Of a DNA stretch of 64,000 nucleotides, positions 9,794 to 56,584 are shown one piece after another (the first letter of the stretch is position 1; each line of letters opens with the position of its first letter). The stretch is from NCBI GenBank assembly GCA_000091205.1, contig AP006496.2; one strand, 5' to 3'. The DNA is from Cyanidioschyzon merolae (taxonomy: Eukaryota). A program made the translations under genes and the position numbers. The notes under the pieces are model-generated. The model saw only the letters and a program-made list of their open reading frames with translations. It ran no database searches and was not told where the DNA came from.

Positions 9794-10580
9794 CTGTGAC
9801 TGCATCCTTTTCGACACCCTGATCCTCATTAGACCGGTCTCTGCTCACTCTCGCAGTCCTTTGACAAAAGTCGCCGGACGTTGTTGGCAGTGTTTGCGTC
9901 CCGATTTCAATGTGTTCGGCTATTGTCGACATAATCCACATACAGGCGAACGTTGCAAGCTACGCCTCGCTTGTCATTTTCATCTTCGATGCGTAGAGCA
10001 TCGGTGCACAGGGCGCAGCGATGATTCCTAACGACGATCAACTGCTCCCGTTCACCCATCACAAATTCCTCTTCCCGTTCCATGTCTTCTGGAGCATGAA
10101 CGCTTGTTTCTTCGCTCGGCGCATGCCGCTGACGCCTACGCAGGGTGCACCTCCGACGCCCATACCTTCGTTTCCGCGCCCGGCGCCGTACCCTACGATT
10201 CCAGGCCTCGTCTGGGCAATCCCTCGGGCGGGGACGCTGTCCGCTAGATGCACAGGCGCACGCTTCTCCACTCGATACGTAATTCGTGGAACGGGGTGTT
10301 GTCTGTGGAGAAACACGTGCCACAAGGCGAATCGACGCCGGGGAACAAGGCGCGGAATTGCGATCTGTCTACGCTCGCCTCGTGCAAGGCGCAGTCGCAC
10401 GCTGAAACGGAAGCGATCACTGTGATGACTCAACTGCGAATCAATGATCAGTCTGATGAAGTTGCTGTGGAATTCTGCTTTGCGAGATGCGTTGACTAGA
10501 AGGCGATTTGTCTTTTGAACGGAATCGATAATGTGCTGGGAAAATCCCAATCAACTTTCGGATTGAGCTTATGAACAGGC
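9794..10580. repeat. Dispersed repeat R, copy 1 (787 bp, near-identical to 15154..15940)
   Basis: Base-by-base comparison with copy 2 at a constant offset of 5360 bp finds 5 mismatches (9807, 9974, 10339, 10555, 10563) and no indels. The ORF-track translations are duplicated on both strands. The origin is unresolved and no family could be assigned. Confidence 0.95.
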
Positions 10581-10650
10581 CATCAAACGACGACGACGTG
10601 TTCTTTGACGCACCCGCCTGTCCAGTAGTGCGACTTGTTGCGCACACGAC

Positions 10651-10890
10651 TTGCCGTGATAGATTGAAACGTTGAAGCATGCGTGAATCGCGCACGCTAC
10701 TCCTAAAGCAAGCAGCAGACTGGAACCTTGTTCTGTGAACAAAACAATACTATCGCTTATATTCCGAAATAGAGGTCGAGGGCATCGCGAATCACCTTGA
10801 TTCCGGTGAAATAACGAGTTCGAGGAGCAGCGCTTCGAAGGTGCCTTCGCGAAAAGACGTCCGGGATTCCTAACATCTCACGTGCGCTCC
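10651..10890 (+). repeat. Diverged element E, copy 1 (possible decayed copia-type protease region)
   Basis: Aligns by eye with 16018..16245 and 29475..29705. Shared blocks include a(t/c)aat(g/a)(a/c)tatcg, ttgatt(t/c)cggt and (g/a)a(a/t)tcctaa. The plus frame reads GIANHLDSGEITSSR (compare LDSGASxH). Confidence 0.6.
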
Positions 10891-11525
10891 CATAAGCCTT
10901 CTGCTGCTCCACGTTCACATTTCGTCAATACATCTAAAATCAATTCAGAACAAAGTCTCAGTGCTCGAATCGATTGAGCATTTCCGCGTTACGCTTTCCC
11001 CAAGCGCCACTGCAGGCCAACGAGCGCTGCTGTGCCGTACGAGCCCGCAGCGTCGACAGCGGCGACGGTGTCGGGGCGCCCGACAACGCTGGCACTCGCC
11101 CCTTGCATCGGTATGCAAAGCGTACCTCAAGCAACGTCTACTTCGCATAGGTGCACTGCACTTGGGTTTTTGTAGCTTGCTGGATCTAGTTATTCCAGAG
11201 TAGCGCAGCGTGCGGCTGTTTGAGCGCGTTCCAGGCTTGGCAGCGTTCCGCGAAGCCCGAAGCAGAACGTCGCTAGTGGACGACGCGGCTGCGGCAGAGG
11301 CAGGTGCAGGCGCCCGGCGGAAAGCACACCAGTGTAGCAGCTATTGTGTGCGCTTACCCAGGTGAGTGCTGGTTGAGGTTTTAGGTTTGAGTGCGTCGGC
11401 TAGGTGCTCAGAGCATAACCTCTGAGACGCGAACGCGTAAGCGCCAGCTGCACGTGGAAACAGGGGACGTCTGCGGACAGCAGCCTGTGGCATTGCTTCC
11501 GTAGCCTAGGCCGGAGCCACATAGT

Positions 11526-15153: not shown

Positions 15154-15940
15154 CTGTGACTGCATCGTTTTCGACACCCTGATCCTCATTAGACCGGTCT
15201 CTGCTCACTCTCGCAGTCCTTTGACAAAAGTCGCCGGACGTTGTTGGCAGTGTTTGCGTCCCGATTTCAATGTGTTCGGCTATTGTCGACATAATCCACA
15301 TACAGGCGAACGTTGCAAGCTACGCCTCGCTTGCCATTTTCATCTTCGATGCGTAGAGCATCGGTGCACAGGGCGCAGCGATGATTCCTAACGACGATCA
15401 ACTGCTCCCGTTCACCCATCACAAATTCCTCTTCCCGTTCCATGTCTTCTGGAGCATGAACGCTTGTTTCTTCGCTCGGCGCATGCCGCTGACGCCTACG
15501 CAGGGTGCACCTCCGACGCCCATACCTTCGTTTCCGCGCCCGGCGCCGTACCCTACGATTCCAGGCCTCGTCTGGGCAATCCCTCGGGCGGGGACGCTGT
15601 CCGCTAGATGCACAGGCGCACGCTTCTCCACTCGATACGTAATTCGTGGAACGGGGTGTTGTCTGTGGAGAAACACGTGCCACAAGGCGAATCGACGCTG
15701 GGGAACAAGGCGCGGAATTGCGATCTGTCTACGCTCGCCTCGTGCAAGGCGCAGTCGCACGCTGAAACGGAAGCGATCACTGTGATGACTCAACTGCGAA
15801 TCAATGATCAGTCTGATGAAGTTGCTGTGGAATTCTGCTTTGCGAGATGCGTTGACTAGAAGGCGATTTGTCTTTTGAACGGAATCGATAATGTGCTGGG
15901 AAAATCCCAATCAATTTTCGGAATGAGCTTATGAACAGGC
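15154..15940. repeat. Dispersed repeat R, copy 2
   Basis: See copy 1. It is in direct orientation, and the two copies bracket LETM1. Confidence 0.95.
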
Positions 15941-16017
15941 GCCCAAGAGAGAACACCCCATGATTTCGTCATCCAATCGGCGGCGCGCATTGCTGCACCC
16001 AATACTTGCTGTGCGTA

Positions 16018-16245
16018 GGTCGAAAGCTTGACGCATCCGCGATGTGTGCTTGCTGCTTATAAAGAAATGAAACGCGTGGACGCTTTACGTATGATTTACA
16101 TAATGATATCGTCTATTTTGCGACCATTGCCCAAGATTGTCGCGATTGAGAATGATTTCGGTTTTAACGAGTTCCAGGAACAGCGCGTCAATGGAGCCAC
16201 TTCCAAACTTCGACCAAGAATCCTAGAACGACCTGGGAAATGACG
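16018..16245 (+). repeat. Diverged element E, copy 2
   Basis: Aligns with E1 and E3. The ORF 16028..16243 translation (..YIMISSILRPLPKIVAIENDFGFNEF..KLRPRILE) parallels the E3 ORF 29486..29704 (..YWIMISVMLRTLVRDVVIHLDFGVAKHTSS..KSRPRILK). Confidence 0.65.
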
Positions 16246-16702
16246 AGCCGTCGCTGCTGCTCGCTAAGCAACGATGCTGTACATCAGAGGGATACTTTGG
16301 AAATAAGTCTCGAGCCTGGACTAGAGCGTACAGTTCAGTGCCCCATGTTCATCGGACACGGTATAGCGTCGCCAGGAAGACGCGGCTATGCGCCCGTTGC
16401 AACGCAACAGCAGCGATTGCGTTTCGAGGGTGTCGCCGCATCGGCGCTGGGCGGCGGCGGCGGCGGCGTCGACGACACATGCGTGCACTACGCACGGATA
16501 TCCGTGCATGTCGCGGATACGTGTACGAGGACACTTGCGTGCGTGCATGCGTACTTGCGTCTGAAACTGCCACGAGTTTCACTCAACTTTTTATCTTTGG
16601 ACCTGCTAACCAATTTGGAAACGCTTTCAATCCTCACATTCTACGTCCACGCGTGCTGTCTCGGGCGTGATCTGTGACGATCACCGGTGTTTGGAAGGTT
16701 CC

Positions 16703-27519: not shown

Positions 27520-29474
27520 GAATAGGTTACCCTGGTATCAACGGACGCGTCCAAGGAGGCCTATGGCGTCACAGAGCTTCCCCAGAGGCAGCGTTTCTCC
27601 CCCCGTGGAAGCAACCCGAACAGACGCGAGTCCGTGCCGCTCCGACTCGTTTCGCGCCATGGATCGAGCGCTCGCATGTGAGGCATCGATGGCTGGGAAT
27701 GAATAGGGAGGATATTGTATTTGATTGTATAATGGTGGACTCTGAGGACAGTGCATGCATGATCGCGAACGGCAGCGGCACATGCGCACGCATTCGCGTT
27801 CCTTGAATGAAGTTCGAGGATGGAGGAGCTCGTACGGCACCACAACGTTGTTTTGTCTGGCGTACAGCAAGTATGGCTGTGGCGCAGTTGTCGTTGTGGC
27901 GGGCCCGCTGCTCTACGGATCGGTGGATAATGCGAACGGCCAGTCTTGGTGGGAAGGCTGCTCTGTCTTCAGGGGAGCTCCGAAGCGTCGGGAGCTGAAC
28001 GAAGATCGCTCTCGCTGACTGCGGATACAAACTGATTAGAACAAGTTCGGAACGAGTACACTGTGCAAACAAGGACGTACACCCAAAGGTTTTCGTGTAT
28101 TCCTACTGTCGCCAGCAGAAGACCTTGCGGGCGTTTTCTACGACTGCTCCTTTTCTGTCTCTGTGATCTCGGGGTTTCAAATCGCTGGGCACTCCTTTCG
28201 TTCCAGCCTTCTTGGTTACAGTCGAAGGACGTTAATGACAGCGGTTGTGTACTGATTTCGTTGTTCCAGGATGTCGCGGGCGCAGGTAATTCCCATCGTT
28301 TTCGGACGCAGCCTTTGTGCGCACGCCGCAGTGGTTGCGCTTCACTGTGGTAAAGCGTTCCCGGATGCGCGCTGCATTTTCTCCTCCGAGGGCCGAGGCC
28401 TGCCCTGTGGCGCGTCAAGGCAGGCTTTATCGCTCGGTACACGCCCTTGGTGGATGCAGAAGGCACGGTTCGATGCCCTGCTCCGTTGCCGTGCCCGCTG
28501 CCTTACCCGATCATCGTGGGCTTCTTCTGGGCGATATCCTCGGCGAGTACGCTGTCCTCTAGATGCACAGGCGTGCGCTAATCAGCTCAATAGCTCAACA
28601 TCCGCTTCCTAGCGCGCCTTTTGTTTTCTGCAGACGCCGCCCAGAAAACTTGTCGATGGGCGCAACACGCCTCAAGATACGTAAGCCAGTCTTCGGTATT
28701 GTATCCACGTGTACAAGTCGACTGCGATAATTCAGCCGCAGCTTTTGGTACATTCGTCTGTTTCGCTCGCAGGCTTATCGGAATATGCTTTCAATTCGCA
28801 CACTCTGCTGAGACGAAGATAAGAGGCGTGCGAGTAGAAGCTACCGCTGTGGCGGGAAGGCGCAGGGCTCGAACCTCGTGCCTCCAGAGCATCGGCGATA
28901 ACCACAGGGAGGTTGCAATGCGCTTTGGGGCTCACGGAAAGCGCAAGTGTTGAGGTTCGCGCTCCGTGGGTCCAGGCTGATGCAGATCGCATTGGGGAGC
29001 ACCTTCTCGCGGCCATGCATCGGTGTTGATCGTTGTTCCGCCGCGTAAGACCTCAGATATTGAGCAGGGCTTGGTTTGAGCGCTGACGATGGTGTGAAGC
29101 ATGTGTATGACGTTCGAAGTTGAAGTTGAAGTTGATGATGATGATGATGATGCTGGATGCGCGAACGCTGTCAGTCTCGTTGAAAGTCACCATGTGTTTT
29201 CGTCGTGGAGCAAACCTTGCTTTCCACCTCTCTTCCTTCACAATCACATTTATCGATCACGAGAGAGGTATCATGATGCTGTCGAATGCACTCGCATCGA
29301 TGCCAGAGACGCAGGAGTTTGTGCACCGAACGGAATCGAGCATTTGGCGTGCGAAGTTTTAGTGAACGCGCCGCATAAATATGGAATAAATTCGTCAAGG
29401 TTCGAGCTCGCTTATTCTCCCTCGTCAATAATGCGGCACGAAAAGCCTGTCTCATGAGATACCTTGAATCAGGG

Positions 29475-29705
29475 AGATCGAAAACGTGAAGCGTGCGAGA
29501 TTCGAGCTCGCCATACGTAACAAAGGAGCAGCATGGAGGCTTGAACGCCTATATTGGATAATGATATCGGTGATGTTGCGAACTCTGGTTCGGGACGTCG
29601 TGATTCATCTTGATTTCGGTGTCGCAAAGCATACCAGTAGCAGAGCGCTGGGAAAGCCTCCGAAATCACGCCCGAGAATCCTAAAACCACGTTTGAATCT
29701 GTAAG
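29475..29705 (+). repeat. Diverged element E, copy 3
   Basis: Aligns with E1 and E2. The plus frame reads DVVIHLDFGVAKHTSSR, the copy closest to the copia-type protease motif (LDSGASxHxT). Confidence 0.65.
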
Positions 29706-29977
29706 TGCTCATTGCTGCGTTGGGAGTGTCGAGACAGTGCATCGAAAGCAAGTTCAAAAAACTATTCTCAATCCAGGAGCAAAGCGAGCAGTTTAATGCT
29801 CTATTTTCATGTCAATCGGGTGCAGCGCTCACGCAGCAGGAGCATTACGATACCCGGCGCATCGATGCCGTTGTGAAGGAGAGAAGAACCTTGCACAAAC
29901 TTGGATGGCGTATGCGCATCCAACAATTCATGAGCTCCTTCGCTCCCGCATGCCGTAAACTGTTGCCGTCGACGGGT

Positions 29978-39250: not shown

Positions 39251-39308
39251 GCTCGTCACTGTATGCATCCTCAGGAAAATCAACGGGAGCAGGAGCCAGC
39301 CCGCTCGT

Positions 39309-39941
39309 CTATTCGCGTACTTCGATGCAACGACGCGGACGAGGCCGCTCCGGAGGTGCTGGTAAAGGCTCCTGCTCGAGTTCTGGTGCAACCACTATTT
39401 CGTTGGGCTCAGGAACAAGTTCTGCCGGTTGCGATGTTTCCTCTTTCTGTTTGGACTCGTGGCCAAAGCGTTCGCGAAAAAAGCGGACAACATCATCCAT
39501 GCTCTGCCTCAGGTCCTTTCGAAGCGATGACGGGCGTGTATCCTTTGCCCAGGGCACATAGCGACCAAACCCTTGACCAACACCGACACAGCCGAACCCT
39601 ATGCCTACGCCGCAACCCGTGAACGCCCTCGGTGCCTGGATGCCGTAGCGACGCACGCTCTCAAACGACCAACCAAGCGCTAGCAAACAACAGCCGGTGC
39701 CACAGCCGAGAATCGCTACACCGGCCGGAGGCAAAAAAGATGGCAGTTGCACCGCCGCAACTGCAGCGTGCTTCCAAGCGCTCGCACCCGAAAGCCGCCG
39801 CCGTGCACCAGTCCCTGTGCCAAGCGTCCAGCTTGGAGGTGCGTGCGGCTCCACCCAGGTCGACCGAAGCACGCTCGAACCAGCGTCCAACTGGTAGTTC
39901 AAGCTCCTCGCGAAACAGTTAAGTCCACACGCTTGTTCCAT
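39309..39941 (-). CDS. Hypothetical membrane protein with glycine-zipper motif
   Basis: 210-aa ORF with ATG at 39941. It has hydrophobic Gly-rich segments (GVAILGCGTGCCLLALG and GCGVGIGFGCVGVGQGFG) and an acidic, Pro-rich C-terminus. A GxGxGxG motif occurs in Mic10-type proteins, but I cannot support homology. Confidence 0.35.
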   Translation of the reverse strand: MEQACGLNCFARSLNYQLDAGSSVLRSTWVEPHAPPSWTLGTGTGARRRLSGASAWKHAAVAAVQLPSFLPPAGVAILGCGTGCCLLALGWSFESVRRYGIQAPRAFTGCGVGIGFGCVGVGQGFGRYVPWAKDTRPSSLRKDLRQSMDDVVRFFRERFGHESKQKEETSQPAELVPEPNEIVVAPELEQEPLPAPPERPRPRRCIEVRE

Positions 39942-41170: not shown

Positions 41171-42443
41171 TTTGGGGGCTTTTTTTTCTCGGCGACAGCT
41201 TCCAGTCGTTCTCTTCTTTACATCAAGATCAGTTTTCAGCAGTCGAGGGATGGATGTTGATGGCAGCGTTCAACGCCCGAATTCCCTGCTTTCCGCTACG
41301 TTCTATTCATTGAGCCGACAGACGCTACATGCGATCTACGCTTCGCATACGATACTCTTTTCTTCTGTATACAGCCTCGGTGCGCACGTCGCACCGTTGA
41401 CAAATGAATGCACAGGGGCGCTCCCATGCGCCCACGAGACGCGCTACTTACGGACAGCCGCTTTGTGGCGCTTGGACGTTGGCGTCATCGCCCGTTACAC
41501 ACCCTTGGCGCGATAAACAAGGCTGACCCAGAAATGCCCTCCGCAGTTTCCGCACCCGGTGTTGTGTCGCAGGTGCACGGGCTTGGTCTGTGCGATGCCC
41601 TCAGCGCATGCCCTCTGAACCGCACGCGCAAGAGCAAGCAGCACCACTCGATACAGGGTTTGCGGGACGCTTTCTTCCACGTCTTGAGACCAGTACCAGA
41701 CCGAACATCTAGACTTGAGAGCAGGTCGAGAAAATGCGATCCGTCTACGCCCCCGTTCATGGAAAGCGATGGCGGTCGTACCGCCAAATGCGATCGCATC
41801 GATGACTCAAGCGCGAGTCCAAGACCCTTTGCTGGCAAACAGATGAGCCGCCAGCCCCTGAGTGCATACCCCCTGAGAGGCACCGTGCCGCTGCCGTCGG
41901 ATGCCGAATGACATGTCGTCGACGGCCACCAAGAGCGGAGGGTATGTGTTTCGAGCTGAATCTGTTGCTTGATGAGACAGGTTCAGTGAACTTTCGGCAT
42001 GAGCGTCTGGGAAAGTCTCCAAAGCTGATGTAGAGTTTTTCCCCGTCGTCGTCCATCCAGCGGCGATGCCTGCTGCGCCCTCGTGCTGCCTTGAAGCAGA
42101 ACCATCGAAAACTTGAAGAATTCGGTATCTGAGCGTGCTGCAGGCAAGGAATGTTGAAACGCAGAGTCCGCATCGTATGATTCGGATAGTGCTCCCGTTC
42201 ACGTTACGAAGCGTAGATCGAGGGCGTCGACACTCCCCTTGTACCGTGCACATAACGATTTCCAGCGGCAAGGAGTCGAACGAGCCACTCGGAAAACTCG
42301 ACCGAGAACCCGGATTCAATGAATGCATCTGATAGCGCTCAATGCGGCATATCTACTGCCAACGCTCTACATCTACAAAGCAAGACTGAGAATGCAATCG
42401 CAAGGCAGCAATTGATCGAACGGTTCAGTGCTCCATTTTTATG
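41171..42443 (-). mobile_element. Repeat family P, copy A (1.27 kb): decayed Ty1/copia-like RT-RNase H remnant, sense on minus strand
   Basis: It is the reverse complement of 44168..45440 (paired coordinates sum to 86611; 173-aa and 167-aa translations appear on opposite strands). The repeat status is certain. The copia assignment is tentative (about 0.4); see copy B. Confidence 0.7.
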
Positions 42444-44167
42444 GTGGCAGGTGTATAGAGTCTAGGATATGGTTTAAGGCGCAATATGGATGACGAAATG
42501 TAACGGATTGTCGCGGCATGAAGAGAAAATTTTAGATGTACGAGTATTCATGAAGCCAAGACTGTACTCATCTGACGAGCCGCTGCAAGCGACACAGTAC
42601 AAGTAACGCTGATCATTTTGACGATAGTGGACATTTTTCTTGTTGTGCATTGTGTACAACCTGGCGCATAAGCAGCGCGCGCTCTCCAGCAGTGGCTCTG
42701 CACCGCGACCGCAACTACCTCGTGTATTACACAATTCCCGCAACAGAGTACGCTCACCATCGACATGATCCGTCTCTAGTTGCGCGCTTACGGCGTTACA
42801 AGTTCCAGCTGGCGGCTATTCTGACACTATCGGGAAGTGCTCTGGTTGCAGACGGAGAACCGGAACCAGCGCGACGAAAGAGCTGCAGTCGAACCGCAAT
42901 TCTCTGATGCAAAGGTTCACAGAATGCTTCGTTCGTGATGCAGCGTGGAGAGAAGCAGTGCGCTCCCTCCATTGCCCCAAGTTCCTTTTCGTGAACTGAC
43001 CCGCAGGCACTACGGGCATCTTCCTGATACCGCCAGTCCGTTTATTGTTGCTGCTCGGGCAACTTGAAGTGCTAGACGGTTTCTGCTAGAAAACCCGCCA
43101 AAAAGCTTGCTATACGGCGTTTACATATGAATCTGCCTAGTAACCCTAGTCGTCCGGCGTTCTCGCTGGCCGAGGAGAACGTTGTCACTTCGGAATGCAG
43201 ATGCTGGCGCGACATCCTCGGCGCGATGCATTGCTGCCCAGAGAGTTCCACAATCGAATTTGTCTGTTTCGTGTCTGCCACAGCATGTGGAATACAAATG
43301 TTTGCCGAACAGAAGATTGAAAGTTCTCCAACAGGTCCGGTCGCTGCAGTGTGCAACGCCTGCGGAGGCGCTCCCGCGTTCGAGGTTATTTATTCAGAGG
43401 GTTTCAGGCACTCACGGTTTAAAAGCATGAACCAGACCCGATCGCACAACGGCTCGTACGATAGCTGTCGCTGTGTCGTCTTCGATACGCCGTGGCGAGG
43501 CACTGGCAAAGCTACCTCTCCATCAGTCCCTGGTGTGGCGCTGAGCTCGTGGCCCCAGGCTCTGAAGGTCTGGGGGCCCTTGGCTTCGCTGCAAGCGCGA
43601 GTTTTCCGTAAACAATGTTCGTAAAACTCTTCCAAAGCCTCACACAGACCACGATTCGATTCGTGCACGCCCATACCGTCAGTGCACCCGGCGTCAGGCG
43701 TGTCGTAAAGGTAACACTGGAGCCCGCTCGTTGCCCTGTTTGGAGGACGCTTGTGTGCTGTGTTGCAACTTGCTCGCCGAGCCACAGTCGTTCGCTAAAC
43801 GCACCAATTACACCATGTTAATCTCAAGTCCGAGTAGAGCACTGTTCGAAACGTCCTCTTTATGCCAGAGTCGAGAATGGCTCTTATTCGCAAACGGTCT
43901 GAAAGAAATAATGCGGCGGGTGTGCGGCGTCGCCCGTGTTCATCGAATATCCTGCATCGAGTTGGTGCTGCCAGGAGGATATTGTCGTGAATATCGATCA
44001 ACATTCATCCAAGACGCATGTACCTCCGGAGGGAAATATGGAGAGTAGTGGTTCGAACTTGAATCTACAGAGCGGTATCATGGATGCTCACGCTGAAACC
44101 GATAACCGTCACAGAATCAGGGCTCCCTGCTTTATGTCAATATTCTTCGACACTACACTGGCGACGG

Positions 44168-45440
44168 CATAAAAATGGAGCACTGAACCGTTCGATCAAT
44201 TGCTGCCTTGCGATTGCATTCTCAGTCTTGCTTTGTAGATGTAGAGCGTTGGCAGTAGATATGCCGCATTGAGCGCTATCAGATGCATTCATTGAATCCG
44301 GGTTCTCGGTCGAGTTTTCCGAGTGGCTCGTTCGACTCCTTGCCGCTGGAAATCGTTATGTGCACGGTACAAGGGGAGTGTCGACGCCCTCGATCTACGC
44401 TTCGTAACGTGAACGGGAGCACTATCCGAATCATACGATGCGGACTCTGCGTTTCAACATTCCTTGCCTGCAGCACGCTCAGATACCGAATTCTTCAAGT
44501 TTTCGATGGTTCTGCTTCAAGGCAGCACGAGGGCGCAGCAGGCATCGCCGCTGGATGGACGACGACGGGGAAAAACTCTACATCAGCTTTGGAGACTTTC
44601 CCAGACGCTCATGCCGAGAGTTCACTGAACCTGTCTCATCAAGCAACAGATTCAGCTCGAAACACATACCCTCCGCTCTTGGTGGCCGTCGACGACATGT
44701 CATTCGGCATCCGACGGCAGCGGCACGGTGCCTCTCAGGGGGTATGCACTCAGGGGCTGGCGGCTCATCTGTTTGCCAGCAAAGGGTCTTGGACTCGCGC
44801 TTGAGTCATCGATGCGATCGCATTTGGCGGTACGACCGCCATCGCTTTCCATGAACGGGGGCGTAGACGGATCGCATTTTCTCGACCTGCTCTCAAGTCT
44901 AGATGTTCGGTCTGGTACTGGTCTCAAGACGTGGAAGAAAGCGTCCCGCAAACCCTGTATCGAGTGGTGCTGCTTGCTCTTGCGCGTGCGGTTCAGAGGG
45001 CATGCGCTGAGGGCATCGCACAGACCAAGCCCGTGCACCTGCGACACAACACCGGGTGCGGAAACGGCGGAGGGCATTTCTGGGTCAGCCTTGTTTATCG
45101 CGCCAAGGGTGTGTAACGGGCGATGACGCCAGCGTCCAAGCGCCACAAAGCGGCTGTCCGTAAGTAGCGCGTCTCGTGGGCGCATGGGAGCGCCCCTGTG
45201 CATTCATTTGTCAACGGTGCGACGTGCGCACCGAGGCTGTATACAGAAGAAAAGAGTATCGTATGCGAAGCGTAGATCGCATGTAGCGTCTGTCGGCTCA
45301 ATGAATAGAACGTAGCGGAAAGCAGGGAATTCGGGCGTTGAACGCTGCCATCAACATCCATCCCTCGACTGCTGAAAACTGATCTTGAAGTAAAGAAGAG
45401 AACGGCTGGAAGCTGTCGCCGAGAAAAAAAAGCCCCCCAA
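44168..45440 (+). mobile_element. Repeat family P, copy B: decayed Ty1/copia-like RT-RNase H remnant
   Basis: Reading across three frames in order gives GKTLHQLWRLSQ (cf KSLYGLKQ), PPLLVAVDDMSFG (cf LLLYVDDMLI), LPAKGLGLA (cf FEMKDLGEA), SLSMN..HFLDLLSSLDV (cf LSQ..YI..LL.RFGM), YRVVLLALARAV, and HFWVSLVYRAKGV (cf HW.A.KRILRYLKGT). Order and spacing fit an RVT_2-type RT followed by RNase H, but frameshifts and stops are present. Confidence 0.7.
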
Positions 45441-46203
45441 TAGCTTGGCCTGATCACAATGGATATCCATCCTCCCTTTATCGTTTACGCCTGTATTAGC
45501 AGAGTCGACTTTTTTGAGTCAATGCTAAGATGAATCTTGTACATGTGCCAGACTTTACAAAGTGCATCTGTTCCATTTCTTGCTGATACGGGCACAACAG
45601 AAACAGCGTCCATGTCCAGCCATTATTCGTAAATTCACCATTGTTCAAGGCTACACACTGTGAAAGTGATGCCAATCAGAGCAATCCACAAGCGCTCGAT
45701 GCTCACATCACTGCACGTCTATACATCTATATTCTGTACAAAGAGCGCCACCCGATCCAGTCCGTTCGGTCTCAGCGTCCGCATCAGCACCCAACACAAT
45801 GCCGCTGGAGCTTCCTGCGAGCTGGATCCGCTCCGTTCACCAGTGCGAAACTGCGTCTAGCATGCACCACTTCTATGTAGTCGCGTGTTATGATGCACGC
45901 GAGCGCTGCGTATGCATCCCGGAATACAAAGCGCGCATCCATGGCCAGCCGCGCACCTAGGAAATCACGAGAGCATCGGTGCCGCATCATCATCATCATC
46001 ATCATCACGAGAACAACAATAACAACAAGTACGAGGCGGGTGCGTTTTCGCCAGCATTTCGAGGTTGTGTCGCCTGTGCTGTGCACTTGGATCGCGCGCT
46101 TGCCTTGCACTCCATGGATAGATGATGACCGATACACCCTTTTGTGCAAGTACTACTCGAATATCGATACCAGGGTGCCTTCTGCGCAGACTCGCGAGCG
46201 TGG

Positions 46204-49125
46204 TCACGAGGAGAACGCAGCTCCGCCAATCTGATCCCCGGTTCGAAGGACCGTCCCTGGCGATGCAATGTCGCCATTCAGCATAGGTACACCAGCGACA
46301 TCACCCAAGGTGGTGCCGCGAGGAAGTCGGAGCAACTTGCCCGAACTCTTATCGAATACGACGACATGCTGTTCCAGTTCAACGATTTGATGATAGAGTA
46401 CGCGAAAGTATTCACTGGTTGTTCCCAACGAAGCTGTGACGGTATCATCGAGAATAACATCCGCTCGACGCGACTCGGAATGCGTCAGTGTTTCCGAGGC
46501 GAGCGTCTCGCCTGAGGGCGGCTGCGTTGCCGGTAACGCTGCGACACGAGCGGGTGTATCCGATGGACCCGCTGCCGTTGTTGCTGCCGTCGGTGTGCTT
46601 ACGGCACCCGAGGCATCCGCCAGTGAGGCTACAGCAGCATCCGAGTCCGCTGCGACGTTGGATTCAAATTCGAACTCACCAACAGAAGGAGCACAGGGCG
46701 TATTGGCTAACGCCGCAGCATGCGCGATAGCGTTCCACGCAACAGCTTTCTCCCGTTCGCTCATGGCAGACGGCGAGACTGTGGTATTCGCAAAGCCCCG
46801 ATCCGTGAACAGATTCAGATTCTGCTTGTAGAGCCAGTGCGCGGCCCTGCCGTACTCCGCCAGCCGATGCATTCGCTCCGAACGCACCTGAACCTCAACC
46901 GGGAAGCCGTCGATAACTACCGTGGTATGCAGACTCTGATACCCGTTCTCCTTGGGCCAACGTATGAAATCGCGTCGCCTTTCGCGCACACTTGGCCAGA
47001 GTCGCTCGATGATGGCCATGACGGCGTCGCATGCCTCCAGCTCGCTGCTCTGATGAACCGGTCGCACAACAACCCGCAACGCCATCAGATCCAGAATGCT
47101 GTCGATGCCGCTCCCGAGACGAATCATCTTCCGGTACGTCGAGTAGAGACTCTTCACACGACCTCTGATGCGCCACGACCAAATGTAACTGTGCAACTGA
47201 GGCTCCAGACTGAGCGCATTTTCGATCGCTTGGCGAGCGTACTCGAGGATATCGGCACCTGCATCAAAGCGCAGTGCAACTTGCCGTCGCAGCGCCTCAC
47301 TCTGTTTTGGAAACAACAGCAAAAACGCCAGCTCCTCCATTTCGCATTGGAGGTAGTAGATGCCGAGCTGATTTGCGAGCGGAGCTACCACTTCCAGCGT
47401 CAAGAGAGCCAATCGCTGGGCAGTCGCATGCGTCATTGCGTCGAGCCGCTGCCTAGCGGGCGCGAGACTCGCCCGCTGGTCATCAGCGCCATCCGTATGG
47501 GATCGCGTCTCGCAAGACGCCTCTCGTGGTGTCAAGAGTCCGGGTGATACGCACGTGGGTGCTTGTTCCGCGGTCTCCTGCATCGAATTCAGTGAGCGAT
47601 CAGCAGGCGTATGCGAAACTGCAGGAGCACCAGAGGCATATGCCCCGGACGCCGTCGACGTACCCCTCACGACAGACGTCGCCACCGACTCGTCCATTGA
47701 CGACGCTGCCTCGCAGCTTCTTTGTGGTGCATTTCCCTCAGCTGCGCACGTATCTGGCGACGATGTTGCAGCGTCCATATCATCCATGAGGCCGAATGCT
47801 TCGCTGTACACGCGCAACTCGTGCAGCGTCCCTGCAAAAAAGAGCGCCAACGCGCGCCAGTCTTTGGCGACACCGATAAGCAGCTGCCGCAGACCTGCGG
47901 GATTCGAATCCATACTCGTCGCGTAGATAATGCCACGTATCGCCCTCTCCTGAATCAGAATATCTGCAACCGACCGGCCGAACTCGCTGGCGATCTCTCG
48001 CGTAGCCAGTGGTGTGTCCAGCAGAGCAGCTGCCAGCACAGCCTCGAGGTCCATCTGCAAGTCGATGACTGTATTCAGAACAGCACGACAGCGAGCGAAG
48101 CTGCGGTGTTTGCGCTCCTCGTGTATGGCGACACCCCAGGGTGTAGTCGACACAGCCGCTATGCGCCGTGCCGCCCTGTCGCTTGTACTTGGCGCGCTAG
48201 CTGCGTCCGGCGACAGGCGTTCGCGTTCCCCTCGCGCGCTTGTGCGCAAGTTCATGTCTGGTGGTGATGGTGGTGCATTCGCTGGGTCTGCCGTACTGCC
48301 TGCATCAGCATCTGGCGGTTGTCGAGCAGGCGAGTGCTGCATCGTAGCGGAACGCTGTAGCGAACGTTCCAGAGCAATGCGCACGAGGGATGAACCGATG
48401 GGTCCCAGGTACGCACAGCGAAGCTCGACATCTTCAATGAAGCGCTGCAAATCCTGTGTGGAGGATGGCCAGCCCGGGCCTTCCGCAACCTCACTGCATC
48501 TTCGCTGCTTTTCCAGGTTCTGGAGCGCCCGGCTAACCTGCGATGAAACCTGAATAAAATCTGAGCTGGAGACGTCTTTCGAGACTCGCTCTGGTGCCCG
48601 CCTGTGCTCGTTACGTCGCTGGCTCAGGGCTCCTGATTCGCGAGCCGCACCAAAGCACTCATACGTTCCATGCCTTGCGGGAGTGGTCGCTAGTCCCTGG
48701 CGGCGGCTGCGGTGCAGAAAAAGGCGCACGCCGACAGGTTTCCCAGTCGCTGACGGAGGCCGCTCCGGAACATCTTGCTGTTCACTGCGGGTGTTTTCAT
48801 CACCCGTGGCCACCTGAGCATCACCAGTCTTGTGTCGCACGTTCCAGACACACTTTGGTGCAGCAGAAGCGCCTTCCTCGCCATAGAACGGAGTTCGCTC
48901 AGGAAGCAGCCCCTGTTCGACCGGATCGATGCCCAGACGAAGAGCGCAGCGCCGCCCTTCGAAGCGGCCGCTACAAAACACCCTCCGTACAGGCGGAACG
49001 CGTAGGAGTGCTCTGTTTGCCGCACATAGTGCCGCCGCGCTCCCAACGAAGCCGTGAACCCGCTCTATTCGCACAGGCTGCAGACTCGGCTCAACGAAGC
49101 AGCTCGATGAGCGCCCAGTTGACAT
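46204..49125 (-). CDS. RSH: RelA/SpoT homologue (RSH): (p)ppGpp synthetase with degenerate HD domain and C-terminal TGS-like domain
   Basis: 973-aa ORF with ATG at 49125. The synthetase core reads LDLMALRVVVRP...RRDFIRWPKENGYQSLHTTVVIDGFPVEVQVRSERMHRLAEYGRAAHWLYK. The HD-domain scaffold is recognisable (DLEAVLAAALLDTPLATREIASEFGRSVADIL, VVAPLANQLGIYYLQCEMEELAFLLLFP). The C-terminus HVVVFDKSSGKLLRLPRGTTLGDVAG...VLRTGDQI is TGS-like. Confidence 0.85.
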   Translation of the reverse strand: MSTGRSSSCFVEPSLQPVRIERVHGFVGSAAALCAANRALLRVPPVRRVFCSGRFEGRRCALRLGIDPVEQGLLPERTPFYGEEGASAAPKCVWNVRHKTGDAQVATGDENTRSEQQDVPERPPSATGKPVGVRLFLHRSRRQGLATTPARHGTYECFGAARESGALSQRRNEHRRAPERVSKDVSSSDFIQVSSQVSRALQNLEKQRRCSEVAEGPGWPSSTQDLQRFIEDVELRCAYLGPIGSSLVRIALERSLQRSATMQHSPARQPPDADAGSTADPANAPPSPPDMNLRTSARGERERLSPDAASAPSTSDRAARRIAAVSTTPWGVAIHEERKHRSFARCRAVLNTVIDLQMDLEAVLAAALLDTPLATREIASEFGRSVADILIQERAIRGIIYATSMDSNPAGLRQLLIGVAKDWRALALFFAGTLHELRVYSEAFGLMDDMDAATSSPDTCAAEGNAPQRSCEAASSMDESVATSVVRGTSTASGAYASGAPAVSHTPADRSLNSMQETAEQAPTCVSPGLLTPREASCETRSHTDGADDQRASLAPARQRLDAMTHATAQRLALLTLEVVAPLANQLGIYYLQCEMEELAFLLLFPKQSEALRRQVALRFDAGADILEYARQAIENALSLEPQLHSYIWSWRIRGRVKSLYSTYRKMIRLGSGIDSILDLMALRVVVRPVHQSSELEACDAVMAIIERLWPSVRERRRDFIRWPKENGYQSLHTTVVIDGFPVEVQVRSERMHRLAEYGRAAHWLYKQNLNLFTDRGFANTTVSPSAMSEREKAVAWNAIAHAAALANTPCAPSVGEFEFESNVAADSDAAVASLADASGAVSTPTAATTAAGPSDTPARVAALPATQPPSGETLASETLTHSESRRADVILDDTVTASLGTTSEYFRVLYHQIVELEQHVVVFDKSSGKLLRLPRGTTLGDVAGVPMLNGDIASPGTVLRTGDQIGGAAFSS

Positions 49126-49884
49126 AAACCAACTGTTTTCCTTACCAATAGTAAAGTAATTCTATTCTTGGAACACGCTCTCTGTCGTTGAATGCAGACC
49201 ACCCGACCCGTATGTCTCGGTTATCGAGTACGTTCCGTGACGCTCCCTTCACACAGCGCGCTACCGACACGTCATCTGCGCTCGGGGCTTCGCAGGCCGT
49301 TTCGTGCCGGTAATCCGGACATCCGGACAATCTCGCGATGGCGGGAACGCGCTGATGCGCTGGCGCTCCCAGTCTTCTGGACCTCCATCCAGATATGAAA
49401 CAAGTGCTGGCAAGAGTAGTCATCGAAGGGTGCCCCAGTCGTTGTGCAGTGTTCTAGTCAACGCGGTGCACGCTGGCTGGAATACCTGGTCCAAGACGCC
49501 GAGTCTGTGTTTGCGGGGTTTTTATCACAGGTATCCGCAGGAGGGATTGGAACCTGTTGGTGTGGGGACGTTCGTGCAGGGACCTGGTGCTGTCACTGCT
49601 AGCCTGCGAAGAACGGCTGCACTTGTACAGGTCAGTCGTTTGTAGGTCAGCAGGGCGATGAACCACGCGTTTCGTGGTCACGGTCATGAAGTTGTTGCAG
49701 ACAGCACGGAAAGTATCCAACGGTATGTATAGGACTCGCTCCTTCTTATTGCAATGCATTCCGAGCGATGTTTGAGAGTTTTTGGAAGAGATGTCACAGG
49801 TTGAGAAGTTTTCCGCACCGCTGATACGAAACGATGATAGAGAAGCACGAATGGACCGAGAAATTGCGGCGATAGGGGATGACG

Positions 49885-50962
49885 AATGCATTCATAGAAT
49901 CCGGGTTCTCGGTCGAGTTTTCCGAGTGGCTCGTTCGACTCCTTGCCGCTGGAAATCGTTATGTGCACGTTACAAGGGGAGTGTCGACGCCCTCGATCTA
50001 CGCTTCGTAACGTGAACGGGAGCACTATCCGAATCATACGATGCGGACTCTGCGTTTCAACATTCCTTGCCTGCAGCACGCTCAGATACCGAATTCTTCA
50101 AGTTTTCGATGGTTCTGCTTCAAGGCAGCACGAGGGCGCAGCAGGCATCGCCGCTGGATGGACGACGACGGGGAAAAACTCTACATCAGCTTTGGAGACT
50201 TTCCCAGACGCTCATGCCGAAAGTTCACTGAACCTGTCTCATCAAGCAACAGATTCAGCTCGGAACACATACCCTCCGCTCTTGGTGGCCGTCGACGACA
50301 TGTCATTCGGCATCCGACGGCAGCAGCACGGTGCCTCTCAGGGGGTATGCACTCAGGGGCTGGCGGCTCATCTGTTTGCCAGCAAAGGGTCTTGGACTCG
50401 CGCTTGAGTCATCGATGCGATCGCATTTGGCGATACGAGCGCCATCGCTTTCCATGAACGGGGGCGTAGACGGATCGCATTTTCTCGACCTGCTCTCATG
50501 TCTAGATGTTCGGTCTGGTACTGGTCTCAAGACGTGGAAGAAAGTGTCCCGCAAACCCTGTATCGAGTGGTGCTGCTTGCTCTTGCGCGTGCGGTTCAGA
50601 GGGCATGCGCTGAGGGCATCGCACAGACCAAGCCCGTGCACCTGCGACACAACACCGGGTGCGGAAACGGCGGAGGGCATTTCTGGGTCAGCCTTGTTTA
50701 TCGCGCCAAGGGTGTGTAACGGGCGATGACGCCAACGTCCAAGCGCCACAAAGCGGCTGTCCGTAAGTAGCGCGTCTCGTGGGCGCATGGGAGCGCCCCT
50801 GTGCATTCATTTGTCAACGGTGCGACGTGCGCACCGAGGCTGTATACAGAAGAAAAGAGTATCGTATGCGAAGCGTAGATCGCATGTAGCGTCTGTCGGC
50901 TCAATGAATAGAACGTAGCGGAAAGCAGGGAATTCGGGCGTTGAACGCTGCCATCAACATCC
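49885..50962 (+). mobile_element. Repeat family P, copy C (1.08 kb, truncated at both ends relative to copy B)
   Basis: Collinear with B at a constant offset of 5603 bp (B 44282..45359) and in the same orientation. About nine amino-acid-changing differences are visible in the duplicated ORF translations. Confidence 0.7.
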
Positions 50963-51527
50963 TCACTACTATCAGCAAACGAAACCGGAGGGGAAAGGAG
51001 TCACCCGCGTATTGAAAGCCGGACCCAGATGAGAGTAAACGAGAGCAGTCTCATAAAATCCCCAAAGGCTTGTCTGGATGACCACAGGAAGAGATTCAAG
51101 TTCGAGCATATACGCCCGAGTTCGATCAATGCACCTGTCGCGTTCTGCGCCGCCACGGGGTCTCGGTACCCCGTTCGATCGCAGCGCAGCGGCCCCAGCG
51201 TCCTTCCGTTGGCGTGATGCGCATGATCCGCCGCTGGCTGCCGCCGCGGCACGCACGCAAGCACACACACCGACACCAGTGTCTCTATACTTCAATACAT
51301 GTCCATATGTTAATGTGTCATTATATTTCTATTTCTGTCCATCTACGCGAAGCACCGCGCACAGGCACAGCGCGTCGCCGTCGTCGCCGCCGTCGCGATC
51401 GACGCGCCAACGCCACAAAGCAGCCCGTGCGGCACACATCGCGTACAACGCATCCGTTCGTACCGACAAGCTGCGAGTTTGTGCAGTACTGTGTTTTGTT
51501 GCAGGTTAGCTACGCTCGCGATCGTCC

Positions 51528-52511
51528 ATGTCGGAGGCAACAAAACAGCAGGCTGCGGTAAGCACGGAGCAGGTGCAGAAGGCGAAGCAGAAGGCGAAAA
51601 CCTCCGTGACATCTTTCTTGAAGGACTTGGCTGCGGGTGGTGTTGCGGGAGCGATCAGCAAAACGGCGGTGGCACCGATCGAGCGTGTGAAGCTGCTGTT
51701 GCAGATTTCGTTGAGCAACCCGCAAATAAAGCCAGAGGACCGTTATAATGGAATTTTCGATACTTTCCGGCGTGTCGTGCGAGAGCAGGGCTTTTGGTCG
51801 CTATGGCGTGGGAACATGGCGAACGTACTGCGCTACTTCCCGACACAGGCGTTGAACTTTGCTTTCAAGGACACGTACAAGCAAATGTTCTTGGCCGGCG
51901 TAGATAAGGACAAACAGTTCTGGCGTTTCTTTATGGGTAACCTGGCTAGTGGCGGAGCTGCTGGCGCCACCTCGCTTCTCGTTGTGTACCCGCTGGACTT
52001 TGCGCGAACGCGCCTGGCTGCTGACGTCGGCAAGGGGAAGGATCGAGCATTCACCGGCCTTGGTGACTGCATCATGAAGATCTACCGGAGCGATGGCCTT
52101 CGGGGACTCTATCAAGGATTCGGCGTAAGTATTCAAGGCATTATTGTGTACCGGGCGGCATTCTTTGGCTTCTTCGACACTGCCAAGGCCTTGCTGCTGA
52201 AGGATCCACGCAACGCGCCTGTGTGGCAGTCCTGGCTCATTGCGCAGACCGTCACCACCGTGGCCGGTATTATCAGTTATCCCTTCGACACTGTTCGCCG
52301 TCGGATGATGATGCAGAGCGGTCGCGTAGGCCAGCGCGAATACACCGGCACGCTGGACTGCTGGGCGAAGATCATCAAGAATGAAGGCACTAGCGCCCTC
52401 TTCCGAGGTGCATTCTCGAATGTTATCCGAGGCACGGGCGGCGCCTTTGTTCTGGTGCTCTACGATGAGTTCAAGAAAATCATCAACCCAACAGCTGTGA
52501 TGTACAAGTAA
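51528..52511 (+). CDS. AAC: Mitochondrial ADP/ATP carrier (SLC25 family)
   Basis: 327-aa ORF from ATG 51528. Tripartite carrier repeats carry [20 protein letters not shown] and [10 protein letters not shown]. The ANT-specific RRRMMM signature is present ([13 protein letters not shown]). Confidence 0.95.
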
Positions 52512-53902
52512 GCAAGCTCTGACGTCAAGGGTGGATGCACCAAAGGCCAGATGTTTCCGCCTTCGTAACTGCTGCGATGCAAGCGGCGTAACGCCGGCGC
52601 TTGAAAGCGCAGCTAGACGGGGTGGCATATGCGAGATGAACTGTCCTGGTTGTAAACGTAAATTTGGTTTAAATTCAAACCTAGGAATCGCCGACGTTGC
52701 CTTCGAGCGCTTTTCATTGCGAGCACCGCATTGCGTCCGGAAGAGGTACTCCGTACCACACGCTTTCTCTGAGAACGCAATCCGTGGTGCATCATACCAG
52801 CAGACTAGCCACACCAAACTTTGGCAAGTTTGGAAAAGCGATCTCTAGCCGTTAGACCTGGTTGCCTGTCCGCAACAGGTTCTTGTGCGCCAGCTGCACC
52901 ATACCTGTTGTCTTTGGGCAAGCGCTTGACGCTCCCGCGACGCTGCTGGCACTTGAGCGGAAAACCATAGCGTACACAAGGGCGTTTTATCAGGTCAGCG
53001 CAGTGCATCGCAACTACTATCCGGCGCAGGGCAGGCTCCCAGAAATCCTCGTGAAGCATGAACGCCTCCGAGTAGACTATTGGTTCCGGAGGACAGGCTC
53101 ACGTCCCTAGAACGGTGCTTGGGTTTCTGTTGCGTGAACTTGAAATGTCGCTGATGACTTTGTGTGATAACAGCGCGCAGAAGCAGGTACCAGATGCATA
53201 ACCTCATGCATAGAGTCGTTTTGCGCTGGAGTTCATCCATCATTCAAGCAGCAGCAGCAGCAGCAGCTGCTGCTGCTCTTCTGGCTAGCCCCAGGCAACA
53301 GCGCTTGCGTACGACTCCGCGTAGGAAACGTTCTCTTCAGTTTGATTTGGCTTACAGCACCTGAGACACCTGCCATTGCGCCATAAATGTGTCGAAGCGC
53401 CGTCTCAGCCCCTGTTCTCCAAAGATTTCTACCTGGTGCAGCACTCGACTGAACCACAGACGGCGTCAGCACGCCTGCGGAAAAGCTGTCTGATCTTCCT
53501 TCGGTGCCTCGCACACCCGCTCTTCATCCAATACCGATCCAGACTCGCCAACCGTCGCTAGTTGTAGTCGAACAGCACCGAAAGATGGAAAAACACGGCA
53601 TGAAGCGCACAAGTCAATGACTCCGTTCATGTGTGCTGTCTGGCGACAGGCTAGCATCGACGTGCTGCTCCCGGAACCTCTGGATGCTGCACTGGACATC
53701 GGGTTTCGAATCCATCGCTCCCGCAATCCGATACGCATCCTTTCCAAAGCATAAGAGCACGACGCCTTGCCAGGATGCTGTTCAGCATTGCCCAAAAGCA
53801 AAGACAACTGACCCAGCATTACCTTTGCATATCACCAACGAATACGCCTCATATCATCGAACGAGACACGCTCGATGACCGCACCATATCCGTACGATAC
53901 AG

Positions 53903-56584
53903 TCAGGGAATCGTCTCGATATCATCGAACCAGACGCGCTCGATTACCGCACAGTTCGGAGCGGCTTCCGCTGCATCACGGTGGTCTCTGGGGTGGCCCT
54001 CCGAGTCGCTCGGTTCAGGTGTTCGCGCTCGATCGATCGGGACCTCGTCAGTCAGCAGCTTATAGCGTCGCTCGTCGCAGCCGTATGGACGTGTTCGCAG
54101 ACAAATCAGGGTGTGCAGGGGAATATCGACGTACGGCACCTGCTCCTGCTTGAGGCCCTTGAAGAAAGCATAGATACTCCGAATAATCGCATTGTGAGCA
54201 ACAATAAGAAGAGGTTTGGTTTGACGTTCAATTTCCAGAATTATCGGTTCGACTCGATGGATCACATCAAGATACGATTCTCCGCTGGGATACCGATAGC
54301 GGAGCTTGTCGGCCTTGCGCGCCTCCCAGACATCGGGAAGCTCGCGTTTGATCTGCTCATAGGTCATGCCTTCGCAGATACCCGCGTTGATTTCGTTCAG
54401 CGAGCGCCAGCAGATGCAGATATCGGTGGGAATGTGACGCACTGTGAGCCAAGTGCGTCGCAACTGAGAGCACCAGACCGTGGGCAGCGGTCTGCCTTGG
54501 AACTCTCGTTGGAGGAATTCACTGAGTCGCTTGGCGTACGCTTCACCACGACGCGTGATCGGTGGATCACCGCCAAGTTGTCCGGTGACATTCCACTCGC
54601 TCTCTCCGTGTCGGGAGAGGTAGATCAGACGCGGAACGATATGCACGCTGGTGAGGTAGGAGACAATTTTGCTCTGGAGGTGACCTTTGAGATTATACAA
54701 TACAAACTTCTTGCCGCCGTCAATGATTTTGACGTAGCTGCACCCCTCGTCCTCGGTGATCGTCTCATTGGCGCGTTCGTAGTTTCTCAGACGATTCTTA
54801 AAGTCGCGGACCGCGTAGTCAGCATCTCGGTCGCGATAATCCGGTGAATTCAGTTTCGTAGCGAGAATATTCTGTTCTACAATGCGTTCATCGTTCACAA
54901 TGGACTCAAGAAAGAGGACTCGGATACCCAGATTTTCGAGGTACTCCCGGACAAAACGTCGGCGCATTTTGGTACTGTTGGTGGCGTCGTAGATGCCCAC
55001 TTGGCCGTTCTCACCGAAAAGCCACTGGTTCATCTCATGGAGTGTACGGCGGGCAAACTCCCAGCGCAAGCGCATGCCCTCATCGTTTTCGGGCGAGAAG
55101 AAAGATGCATCGCAATCGCTGCTCTTCATGAGGCGGCGTCGCATGACGCCCACGTTAAAGATCGCTGTACGGTGACCGAGCCAGTTCAGATACCTCGCAA
55201 CCTGTTGGGCGATATGGGACTTGCCCCTGGCAGGTAGCCCTGCCATCACAATCACCAGTTTGCGAACCATGTACTTTGTTTGGCCGGCTGGTTGCGCCAT
55301 TTCTGGAAGGTCGAGTGCGCTGGAAACGCGCTTTGCCTGAGACTCGATGCGACGAAGAGTCGAAGACGCTGCTAGGACCTCGTCGCCTGTTCCGGAGTGC
55401 ATCGATCCAGCGGCGGCCTGCGCTTCCACCAAGGTACACTGCTCTTGCTCTTGGTGTTCGTGGTGCTGTTGCTCTCGTTCAGGTACGTGGCGAGAATCGG
55501 GCGGTAGCGCACGGGATGTAGCCAGGTGCTGTGGCGGTTCACACGAGGCACCTGGGTCAATGTCCGCGAGACGATTCCCGGTGCCGGTGCCCTCGCCCTC
55601 GCCGCTATACGCAAGTGTTCGATGGTATTGCGGTCGAGCCGCACGGTGCCGGTCAATGAAGGCATCTTGGATACCGCCGTAGGCCTCAGAGGAGTTGTCG
55701 GCGTCGAAGTCTACAGCCAATGGGAATGATTCCTCAGCGAGCACCGGCGTTCGCTCGGTTTCCACCCGTCCACCGCCTGCAAGCAATGACGAATCTGCGC
55801 TCACAGCGTCTTCCTCGCGCTCGTTAGAAAAGCTTCTGGGACTCGGAGCAGCAGCGAGCGGTGCCAAAGACGGCGACTCTGAGCCGACGTTCCAGCGCGA
55901 GCGCCAACCCGCTGCACTCGTGTCATATTGAGACGTTGGAAAAGCACCAGATGCTTCAGCAGTTTGGTCTCCAGTTCCGCTGCCTGAGGGATTTGTTTGC
56001 TGCGCAGGCGAGAGCGGTGTCCAATGCGTGGCGGGTGCACCCTCGGCAGCTGGGGGCTCTGCTTTCTTGGCCGGCTCCGAAGCCACGGTGTTTCGCTCGA
56101 CGTGTGTCTCAGGGACAACACCTGGTGGAGACGGTTCCGAGGCCACCCTTTGCAAGTCTAACTGTTCTAAACAAGAACTTGCGGACGCTACGGCCCCCTG
56201 CTCTGGCGCTGTGGCAAGCGTACCGCTGAACGAGCGAGCGTTCCCGGCAGCAGCGTCCGTCGACGCTTCCGTTAGCGTTCGTTCCTCCCCAGTATGTTTT
56301 TGGCGTCTGGATAATTCACTCTGGATCTCAGCAACGAAAGCAAGCGAGTCATTATAGGAGACTATGCGTTTCATGATAGCCCCAGCGGGGAAGCGCGAGA
56401 CCCGCAACCTCTGTTCCAGCCGTGCGCTACTCCCATAAAAACGCTGCCTTGTTTGACTGATGCGCAGGCCAGACAACGTCATGCGAAGCGCTCGCCTGAC
56501 TGCGCTACTCGAAGGGTCGCTCCCCCGAACTATTTCATACCTGCTTCTGACAGAAAGACTGCTTGAGAAGTGGTGAGGTGTCAT
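53903..56584 (-). CDS. 6-phosphofructo-2-kinase / fructose-2,6-bisphosphatase with long low-complexity N-terminal extension
   Basis: The kinase P-loop reads LVIVMAGLPARGKSHIAQQVARYLNWLG. The histidine-phosphatase half has YLSRHGESEWN and LLIVAHNAIIRSIYAFF. The conserved core begins around residue 437 of 893. Confidence 0.9.
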   Translation of the reverse strand: MTPHHFSSSLSVRSRYEIVRGSDPSSSAVRRALRMTLSGLRISQTRQRFYGSSARLEQRLRVSRFPAGAIMKRIVSYNDSLAFVAEIQSELSRRQKHTGEERTLTEASTDAAAGNARSFSGTLATAPEQGAVASASSCLEQLDLQRVASEPSPPGVVPETHVERNTVASEPAKKAEPPAAEGAPATHWTPLSPAQQTNPSGSGTGDQTAEASGAFPTSQYDTSAAGWRSRWNVGSESPSLAPLAAAPSPRSFSNEREEDAVSADSSLLAGGGRVETERTPVLAEESFPLAVDFDADNSSEAYGGIQDAFIDRHRAARPQYHRTLAYSGEGEGTGTGNRLADIDPGASCEPPQHLATSRALPPDSRHVPEREQQHHEHQEQEQCTLVEAQAAAGSMHSGTGDEVLAASSTLRRIESQAKRVSSALDLPEMAQPAGQTKYMVRKLVIVMAGLPARGKSHIAQQVARYLNWLGHRTAIFNVGVMRRRLMKSSDCDASFFSPENDEGMRLRWEFARRTLHEMNQWLFGENGQVGIYDATNSTKMRRRFVREYLENLGIRVLFLESIVNDERIVEQNILATKLNSPDYRDRDADYAVRDFKNRLRNYERANETITEDEGCSYVKIIDGGKKFVLYNLKGHLQSKIVSYLTSVHIVPRLIYLSRHGESEWNVTGQLGGDPPITRRGEAYAKRLSEFLQREFQGRPLPTVWCSQLRRTWLTVRHIPTDICICWRSLNEINAGICEGMTYEQIKRELPDVWEARKADKLRYRYPSGESYLDVIHRVEPIILEIERQTKPLLIVAHNAIIRSIYAFFKGLKQEQVPYVDIPLHTLICLRTRPYGCDERRYKLLTDEVPIDRARTPEPSDSEGHPRDHRDAAEAAPNCAVIERVWFDDIETIP

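Follow-up and report, generated by a model that had tools for sequence, protein, structure and literature searches.

Relics of a Fanzor1 nuclease gene as low-copy repeats around a resident RelA/SpoT homologue gene of Cyanidioschyzon merolae

The stretch of Cyanidioschyzon merolae DNA analysed here (the window; 64 kb, with all coordinates being positions in it unless another source is named) carries a gene for a RelA/SpoT homologue (RSH), which lies among three near-identical copies, here called A, B and C, of a repeat of 1077-1273 bp. The locus is found on chromosome 14 of C. merolae 10D. Copies A, B and C are probably members of a family of Fanzor relics that inserted around resident genes and have been homogenised by local ectopic homologous recombination. 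The locus is real, can be explained and is mostly ordinary. Its repeats are dispersed relics that belong to a known class and here play the part of low-copy repeats.

The three copies were located by self-comparison of the window. The core of copy B (44283-45359) corresponds to copy C (49886..50962, plus strand) over 1077 bp with 99.07% identity, 10 mismatches and no gaps, and both copies lie on the same strand at a constant offset of 5603. Chance cannot be the source of a repeat of such length and identity. These coordinates, the direct orientation, the offset and the identity of about 99% agree with a preliminary description of the region made from the sequence alone. The 1273-bp extent that it gave for B (44168..45440, plus strand) is correct as the unit that B has in common with A and does not hold for the B/C pair, which is limited to the 1077 bp of the core. 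Copy A (41171..42443, minus strand), which had been overlooked, is inverted with respect to B and C and makes the locus a three-copy system. A and B are full-length units of the family that differ at 6 of 1273 positions (99.5% identity), while C differs from A at 9 of 1077 positions (99.1-99.2% identity of the tract to B and A) and is shorter than the A/B unit by 115 bp at the left end and 81 bp at the right end. Repeats longer than 300 bp and more than 97% identical on one chromosome are considered substrates for non-allelic homologous recombination (NAHR), and the copies described here have 1077-1273 bp at 99.1-99.5% identity. With copy A inverted, inversions at this locus are as likely as deletion. 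The 4.4-kb interval between B and C contains a single long open reading frame (ORF), that of RSH (46204-49125, minus strand), so that RSH is indeed essentially the only gene there, as first described.

The position of RSH relative to the repeats is clarified by comparison with the orthologous locus of two outgroup genomes, that of Cyanidiococcus yangmingshanensis (L005) and a related genome obtained from a metagenome (L006), which are close to each other. The RSH gene (46204..49125, minus strand) encodes a protein of 973 amino acids (aa) with the Pfam domains HD_4 and RelA_SpoT that is 100% identical to BAM81207.1 of C. merolae 10D, and has syntenic orthologues in both outgroups. Gene order is the same in the three loci (GOST_TM, PFK2/FBPase2, Mito_carr, RSH, a 94-aa gene, a 207/210-aa gene, an Mpo1-like gene and ATR), and so are the gene orientations, except for that of the small 94-aa gene. 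Neither outgroup locus contains a copy of the repeat (blastn, word size 7), nor does it contain CMe-1A, a Fanzor1 element of C. merolae. The interval between ATR and RSH measures 18.7 kb in C. merolae (27520-46203) versus 7.6 kb in Cyanidiococcus (L005 12884-20481). In C. merolae this interval holds A, B, a more distant family member named f29 and several CMe-1A-like pieces, all without counterparts in Cyanidiococcus, and repeat relics may account for much of its extra length. The comparison shows that the repeats are lineage-specific insertions into the intergenic DNA around an RSH gene that was already in place. Since RSH occupies the Cyanidiococcus locus without any repeat, it is a bystander and not a cargo.

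This comparison of the orthologous locus, which the preliminary description had itself proposed, decides on its suggestion that the cargo between the repeats is a host gene: a host gene it is, but one that resides at this locus and was not carried there by an element. In fact, the idea that a composite mobile unit, or an element resembling a long terminal repeat (LTR) retrotransposon, with the repeats as its boundaries carried RSH into the locus has hardly any probability left. What speaks for it is the superficial geometry of one gene between direct repeats. However, RSH is found in the same place in Cyanidiococcus, with Mito_carr on one side, the 94-aa and 210-aa genes on the other and no repeats, and neither target-site duplications (TSDs) nor terminal inverted repeats (TIRs) are seen at the ends of the copies. 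Moreover, copy C is truncated and ends in a different 3' tail, no intact nuclease or transposase is present in the window, and LTR elements are not known in the C. merolae genome (PMC1955436).

The nature of the repeat emerges from its more distant relatives. Searching with B as query, nhmmer delimits a family unit of about 1.25 kb (homology across 44148-45406) and detects six members in three subfamilies within the window, each with different flanks. In addition to A, B and C, these are r2a, of a different subfamily and located upstream of LETM1 (9833..10997, minus strand; E 7e-58 against B), r2b, downstream of LETM1 (15193..16371, minus strand), and f29, of a third subfamily (28216..29813, minus strand; E 9e-28 and 1e-12). 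These last three are only about 57-60% identical to B. An ORF of r2a (10062-10550, minus strand), compared by HMMER with 1.84 billion representative proteins, retrieves 31 relatives including P0076, a protein of 551 aa (E 9.7e-7). The motifs RuvC D...E, CxxC...CxxC and NRDFNAAINI can be read from the sequence of P0076, which matches a Fanzor1 profile with an E value of 1.3e-24 and the CMe-1 Fanzor with one of 1.3e-13. In tblastn searches P0076 matches all six family members, and all of these matches carry in-frame stops. The decayed Fanzor1-like coding remnant of B (44958..45149, plus strand) aligns with aa 315-377 of P0076 at 43.8% identity (E 4e-7) and has a stop inside. Similar remnants occur in C (50561-50752, plus strand; E 1.2e-6) and A (41653-41462, minus strand; E 6.7e-6), as well as in r2a and r2b (E 3e-11 each) and in f29 (aa 253-377; E 2e-20). 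Moreover, frame translation reveals a NAAINI motif resembling RuvC-III at 45337-45354, near the right end of the unit. Because the P0076 matches with their stops are accompanied by this motif, the repeat is shown, at the level of protein similarity, to be a remnant, riddled with stops, of a Fanzor1 (TnpB-like) nuclease gene, of which it represents the C-terminal part. None of the family copies retains an intact nuclease ORF, with stops in all frames, and no intact Fanzor or transposase was found anywhere in the window. A Fanzor profile combined with a shuffle test of collinear chains is significant for r2a/r2b and f29 and not for A and B; the Fanzor link of A, B and C is settled only via P0076.

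This identification replaces the initial characterisation of the flanks of RSH as pol-like. In ten ORFs, which come from B, from the spacer between A and B and from the region upstream of RSH, Pfam recognises no mobile-element domain at E<=1, the repeat contains no reverse transcriptase or integrase, and its sole significant protein similarity is to Fanzor. A different delimitation of the family unit, in which the 1077-bp core would be the unit and the A/B extensions a co-duplicated flank, was rejected because nhmmer homology spans the whole A/B unit. The left flank of C has no family homology.

Two repeats of C. merolae described earlier are relevant here. CMe-1A is a Fanzor1 element present in about 150 copies, with a consensus of 3169 bp and no TIRs or detectable TSDs, the members of which are about 80% identical to the consensus (PMC3627910). 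Neither A, B and C nor the hidden Markov model (HMM) of their family matches this consensus, taken from the supplement of PMC3627910, at the DNA level (blastn, nhmmer), and the CMe-1A Fanzor protein has no significant match to A, B or C. The CMe-1A consensus does match elsewhere in the window, at 36439-37113, 30523-32705 and 60380-60964. By these sequence comparisons, the A/B/C family is separate from the published CMe-1A. The second repeat is a novel interspersed repetitive element of about 3.2 kb and 253 copies with a truncated ORF weakly similar to WSV486 of the white spot syndrome virus (WSSV) (PMC1955436), and we infer that the A/B/C family could be this WSV486-like element of Nozaki et al. 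(2007). Other pieces of the window belong to the CMe-1 type. Those at 30523-32705 and 60380-60964 (both minus strand) derive from a Fanzor1 ORF of the CMe-1 type and are degenerate and frameshifted (profile E down to 8e-12). Those at 36439-37113, 40124-40313 and 44017-44145 are fragments similar to CMe-1A/TE-N2_CMe at its 5' end; one of them includes a 112-bp tandem array (36731-37067), and another abuts the inner end of copy B. As judged from these similarities, several kinds of Fanzor-type relics can be distinguished in the window.

How the copies acquired their mutual identity is suggested by the places at which it ends. The 99% identity of C to A/B falls abruptly at 50962/50963, beyond which C has a diverged 3' tail of the family unit that is its own (50963..51092, plus strand). 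This tail is recognised by multiple alignment and by its similarity to f29, whose 3' end it matches in a local alignment with a score of 27, versus 9.7 +/- 1.5 for dinucleotide shuffles, none of 1000 of which scores as high. With such a diverged tail beyond the 99% tract, C is, on the evidence of the alignments, an older family member with an interior matching A/B, partly overwritten and not a simple duplicate. Its 99% tract probably reflects gene conversion, or a transfer in the reverse direction, from C to A/B. The pair r2a/r2b provides a similar case, as it shares 787 bp at 99.4% identity (9794-10580 = 15154-15940) in direct orientation with a spacing of 5360 bp, and within the element this identity gives way to one of about 60%, resembling the edge of a conversion tract. 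This pair brackets LETM1 (11526-14231), in the orientation opposite to that of B/C. Because the identity boundaries are abrupt, local conversion can be proposed: gene conversion between neighbouring diverged copies would have raised their mutual identity to 99%, compared with about 57-60% to other members, and the same process would have homogenised r2a/r2b around LETM1.

Alternatively, the three copies could be very recent transpositions from one active master, with no recombination among them, which would explain that A and B are identical, apart from the few mismatches given above, over exactly the family unit, as expected of whole-element copies. This is improbable because the 99% tracts of C and r2a/r2b end inside the elements, the rest of which is about 60-65% diverged, and near-identical copies occur in the window only as neighbours about 3-9 kb apart. 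Furthermore, all copies carry stops in a window devoid of an intact Fanzor, and all three were already present in populations that have diverged by 0.3-1.1% from 10D.

A further trace of recombination may be preserved in the spacer between A and B (42444..44167), which is ancestral intergenic DNA with a conserved small gene and no part of an inserted element. This gene (43390..43674, minus strand) encodes the 94-aa protein, which aligns without gaps to its orthologues in L005 and L006 at 49-53% identity and has no Pfam family match. Its N-terminus, MGVHESNRGLCEALE, is invariant in Cyanidioschyzon and Cyanidiococcus. The gene lies in tandem with RSH in C. merolae and is convergent with RSH in L005 and L006; its orientation is reversed also relative to the 210-aa gene when compared with both outgroup assemblies. 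The sole stretch between A and B with a DNA match to Cyanidiococcus (43613-43674) is likewise in reversed orientation. The simplest and most likely account of this flip, judging from gene order and orientation, is an inversion by crossing-over between the inverted copies A and B. Another possibility considered for this segment, a single 4.27-kb insertion comprising A, spacer and B with long TIRs, fitted the intergenic lengths and was rejected, since the spacer has a conserved syntenic gene. All metagenome contigs with the 94-aa gene (L007-L012, window 42541-43920) end near 43890 and 42541-42908; they measure at most 1.35 kb and stop well before the repeat edges of A and B.

Taken as a sequence of events, the preferred explanation, that of Fanzor-relic copies inserted around resident genes and homogenised locally, would run as follows. 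The family goes back to a Fanzor1 element (with a TnpB-like RuvC nuclease), of which it retains the 3' half, and survives as C. merolae-specific, non-coding relics, copies of which entered the intergenic DNA around RSH and the 94-aa gene after the split from Cyanidiococcus. Conversion between neighbours would have followed, and crossing-over between A and B would have flipped the 94-aa gene. Crossing-over between the direct copies B and C would delete or duplicate RSH, and that between A and C would invert it; such deletion, duplication or inversion of RSH is possible and unproven.

Several points weigh against this explanation or parts of it. The divergence between A and B (0.28-0.47%) is barely below that between strains in unique DNA (0.26-1.1%), and a recent duplication of partial copies could equally yield sharp identity boundaries. 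The polarity of the flip depends on a single outgroup lineage, as L005 and L006 are close, and the inversion could have occurred on the Cyanidiococcus side. Finally, that WSV486 and the WSSV Fanzor SWv-1 are the same is itself inferred. Considering all copies, paralogue divergence among A, B and C is 0.28-0.93% versus a strain divergence of 0.26-1.1% in unique DNA, and all three copies are present in strains so diverged from 10D. Ongoing homogenisation is compatible with these figures, which fall short of proof.

Natural variants of the locus are represented by contigs from hot-spring metagenomes that share 98.9-99.7% identity with the window; a single scan of metagenome DNA gave 7 stretches. 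L013 is collinear with 44168-60685 and includes B, RSH, C and the right flank, and L037, L002 and L016 are collinear with 44704-50404, 51247-45337 and 49754-60608, respectively. Because these four independent contigs repeat the reference arrangement, the B-RSH-C layout is no artefact of the reference assembly. Two other cases depart from it. L034 (JGI24721J44947_10016823) leads out of the spacer, across the left extension of B and the core, and directly into the right flank of C (50963-56382), and lacks RSH, which is the exact deletion-type product of a crossover between B and C. L001/L035 (Ga0080006_1108762) passes from A's outer flank through the core into 49885->45310, the arrangement that results from an inversion between A and C. 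In both cases the junction may be an assembler error in a collapsed repeat. The repeat interiors of the metagenome contigs are mosaics of single-nucleotide polymorphisms (SNPs), and in L013 the differences between B and C are confined to about 50 bp at the repeat edges. As this is the pattern that an assembler would produce by collapsing the copies and then choosing an exit, these junctions are leads and not proof.

A structural polymorphism of natural populations, comprising an RSH-deletion allele from B x C and an RSH-inversion allele from A x C, is accordingly only a tentative reading of these two junctions. It is opposed by the four contigs with reference junctions and by the SNP mosaics and near-uniform B and C of L013, which make any path through the core unreliable. 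The preliminary description had considered RSH a candidate for deletion, tandem amplification or circular excision. Its premise, that unequal crossing-over can use direct repeats of about 99% identity, is plausible and in keeping with the conversion-like tracts and the flipped spacer gene. For deletion there is one contig of the expected type (L034), which may be an artefact, whereas for amplification and circles no junction exists among the metagenome contigs compared. In addition to these junctions, two tandem 111-bp units of about 90% identity are located at 39027-39234, of which L023, L025 and L026 seemingly have one fewer, as indicated by overlapping BLAST pieces; this would be a length polymorphism.

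Apart from RSH, the large ORFs of the window belong to ordinary nuclear genes (UTP20, LETM1, fibrillarin, ATR, PFK2/FBPase2, a mitochondrial carrier and GOST). Searches of its full length for Rfam families and tRNAs were empty.

RSH, which encodes a ppGpp-synthesising enzyme, is a chloroplast stress-signalling gene, and C. merolae has three RSH genes, Rsh1[HS], Rsh1[S] and Rsh4[S] (PMC3153485). Going by gene number, the loss of one of three copies might be tolerable. That wild Cyanidioschyzon carries alleles in which one RSH gene has been deleted or inverted via the three Fanzor-relic repeats is doubtful at present. If true, local gene conversion, inversion and gene loss in this otherwise extremely streamlined genome would be driven mainly by such relics. 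RSH is a concrete candidate for presence/absence polymorphism that can be tested by polymerase chain reaction (PCR). The genome of C. merolae, a model organism, is 100% complete and very repeat-poor, and viewing its main repeat class as Fanzor relics prone to recombination with neighbouring copies helps to explain local rearrangements; otherwise, the finding is an expected by-product of dispersed repeats.

Among the closest known systems, the element of Nozaki et al. (2007; PMC1955436) resembles the A/B/C family in its genome, its dispersal and its truncated, decayed ORF with Fanzor/TnpB-like relatives, although it measures about 3.2 kb and the unit described here about 1.25 kb, the two being compared by description only. 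CMe-1A/TE-N2_CMe (Bao and Jurka, 2013; PMC3627910) belongs to the same protein superfamily and likewise has no TIRs or detectable TSDs, but shares no DNA similarity with A, B and C. The resemblance to an LTR retrotransposon, which was originally called superficial, is indeed confined to the geometry, in which an internal segment lies between two direct repeats. In contrast to such an element, the locus has no gag, pol, reverse transcriptase or integrase and no TSDs, its repeats are relics of a nuclease gene, and its internal segment is a syntenic host gene. The locus is also comparable to the low-copy repeats that mediate NAHR, as exemplified by the deletions and inversions due to Ty/delta sequences or segmental duplications, with which it shares repeats of more than 1 kb and at least 99% identity, in direct and inverted orientation within 10 kb, together with conversion-like tracts and a flipped intervening gene. 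Unlike in those systems, the evidence here is drawn from comparative data and metagenome assemblies only, and the rearranged alleles are candidates.

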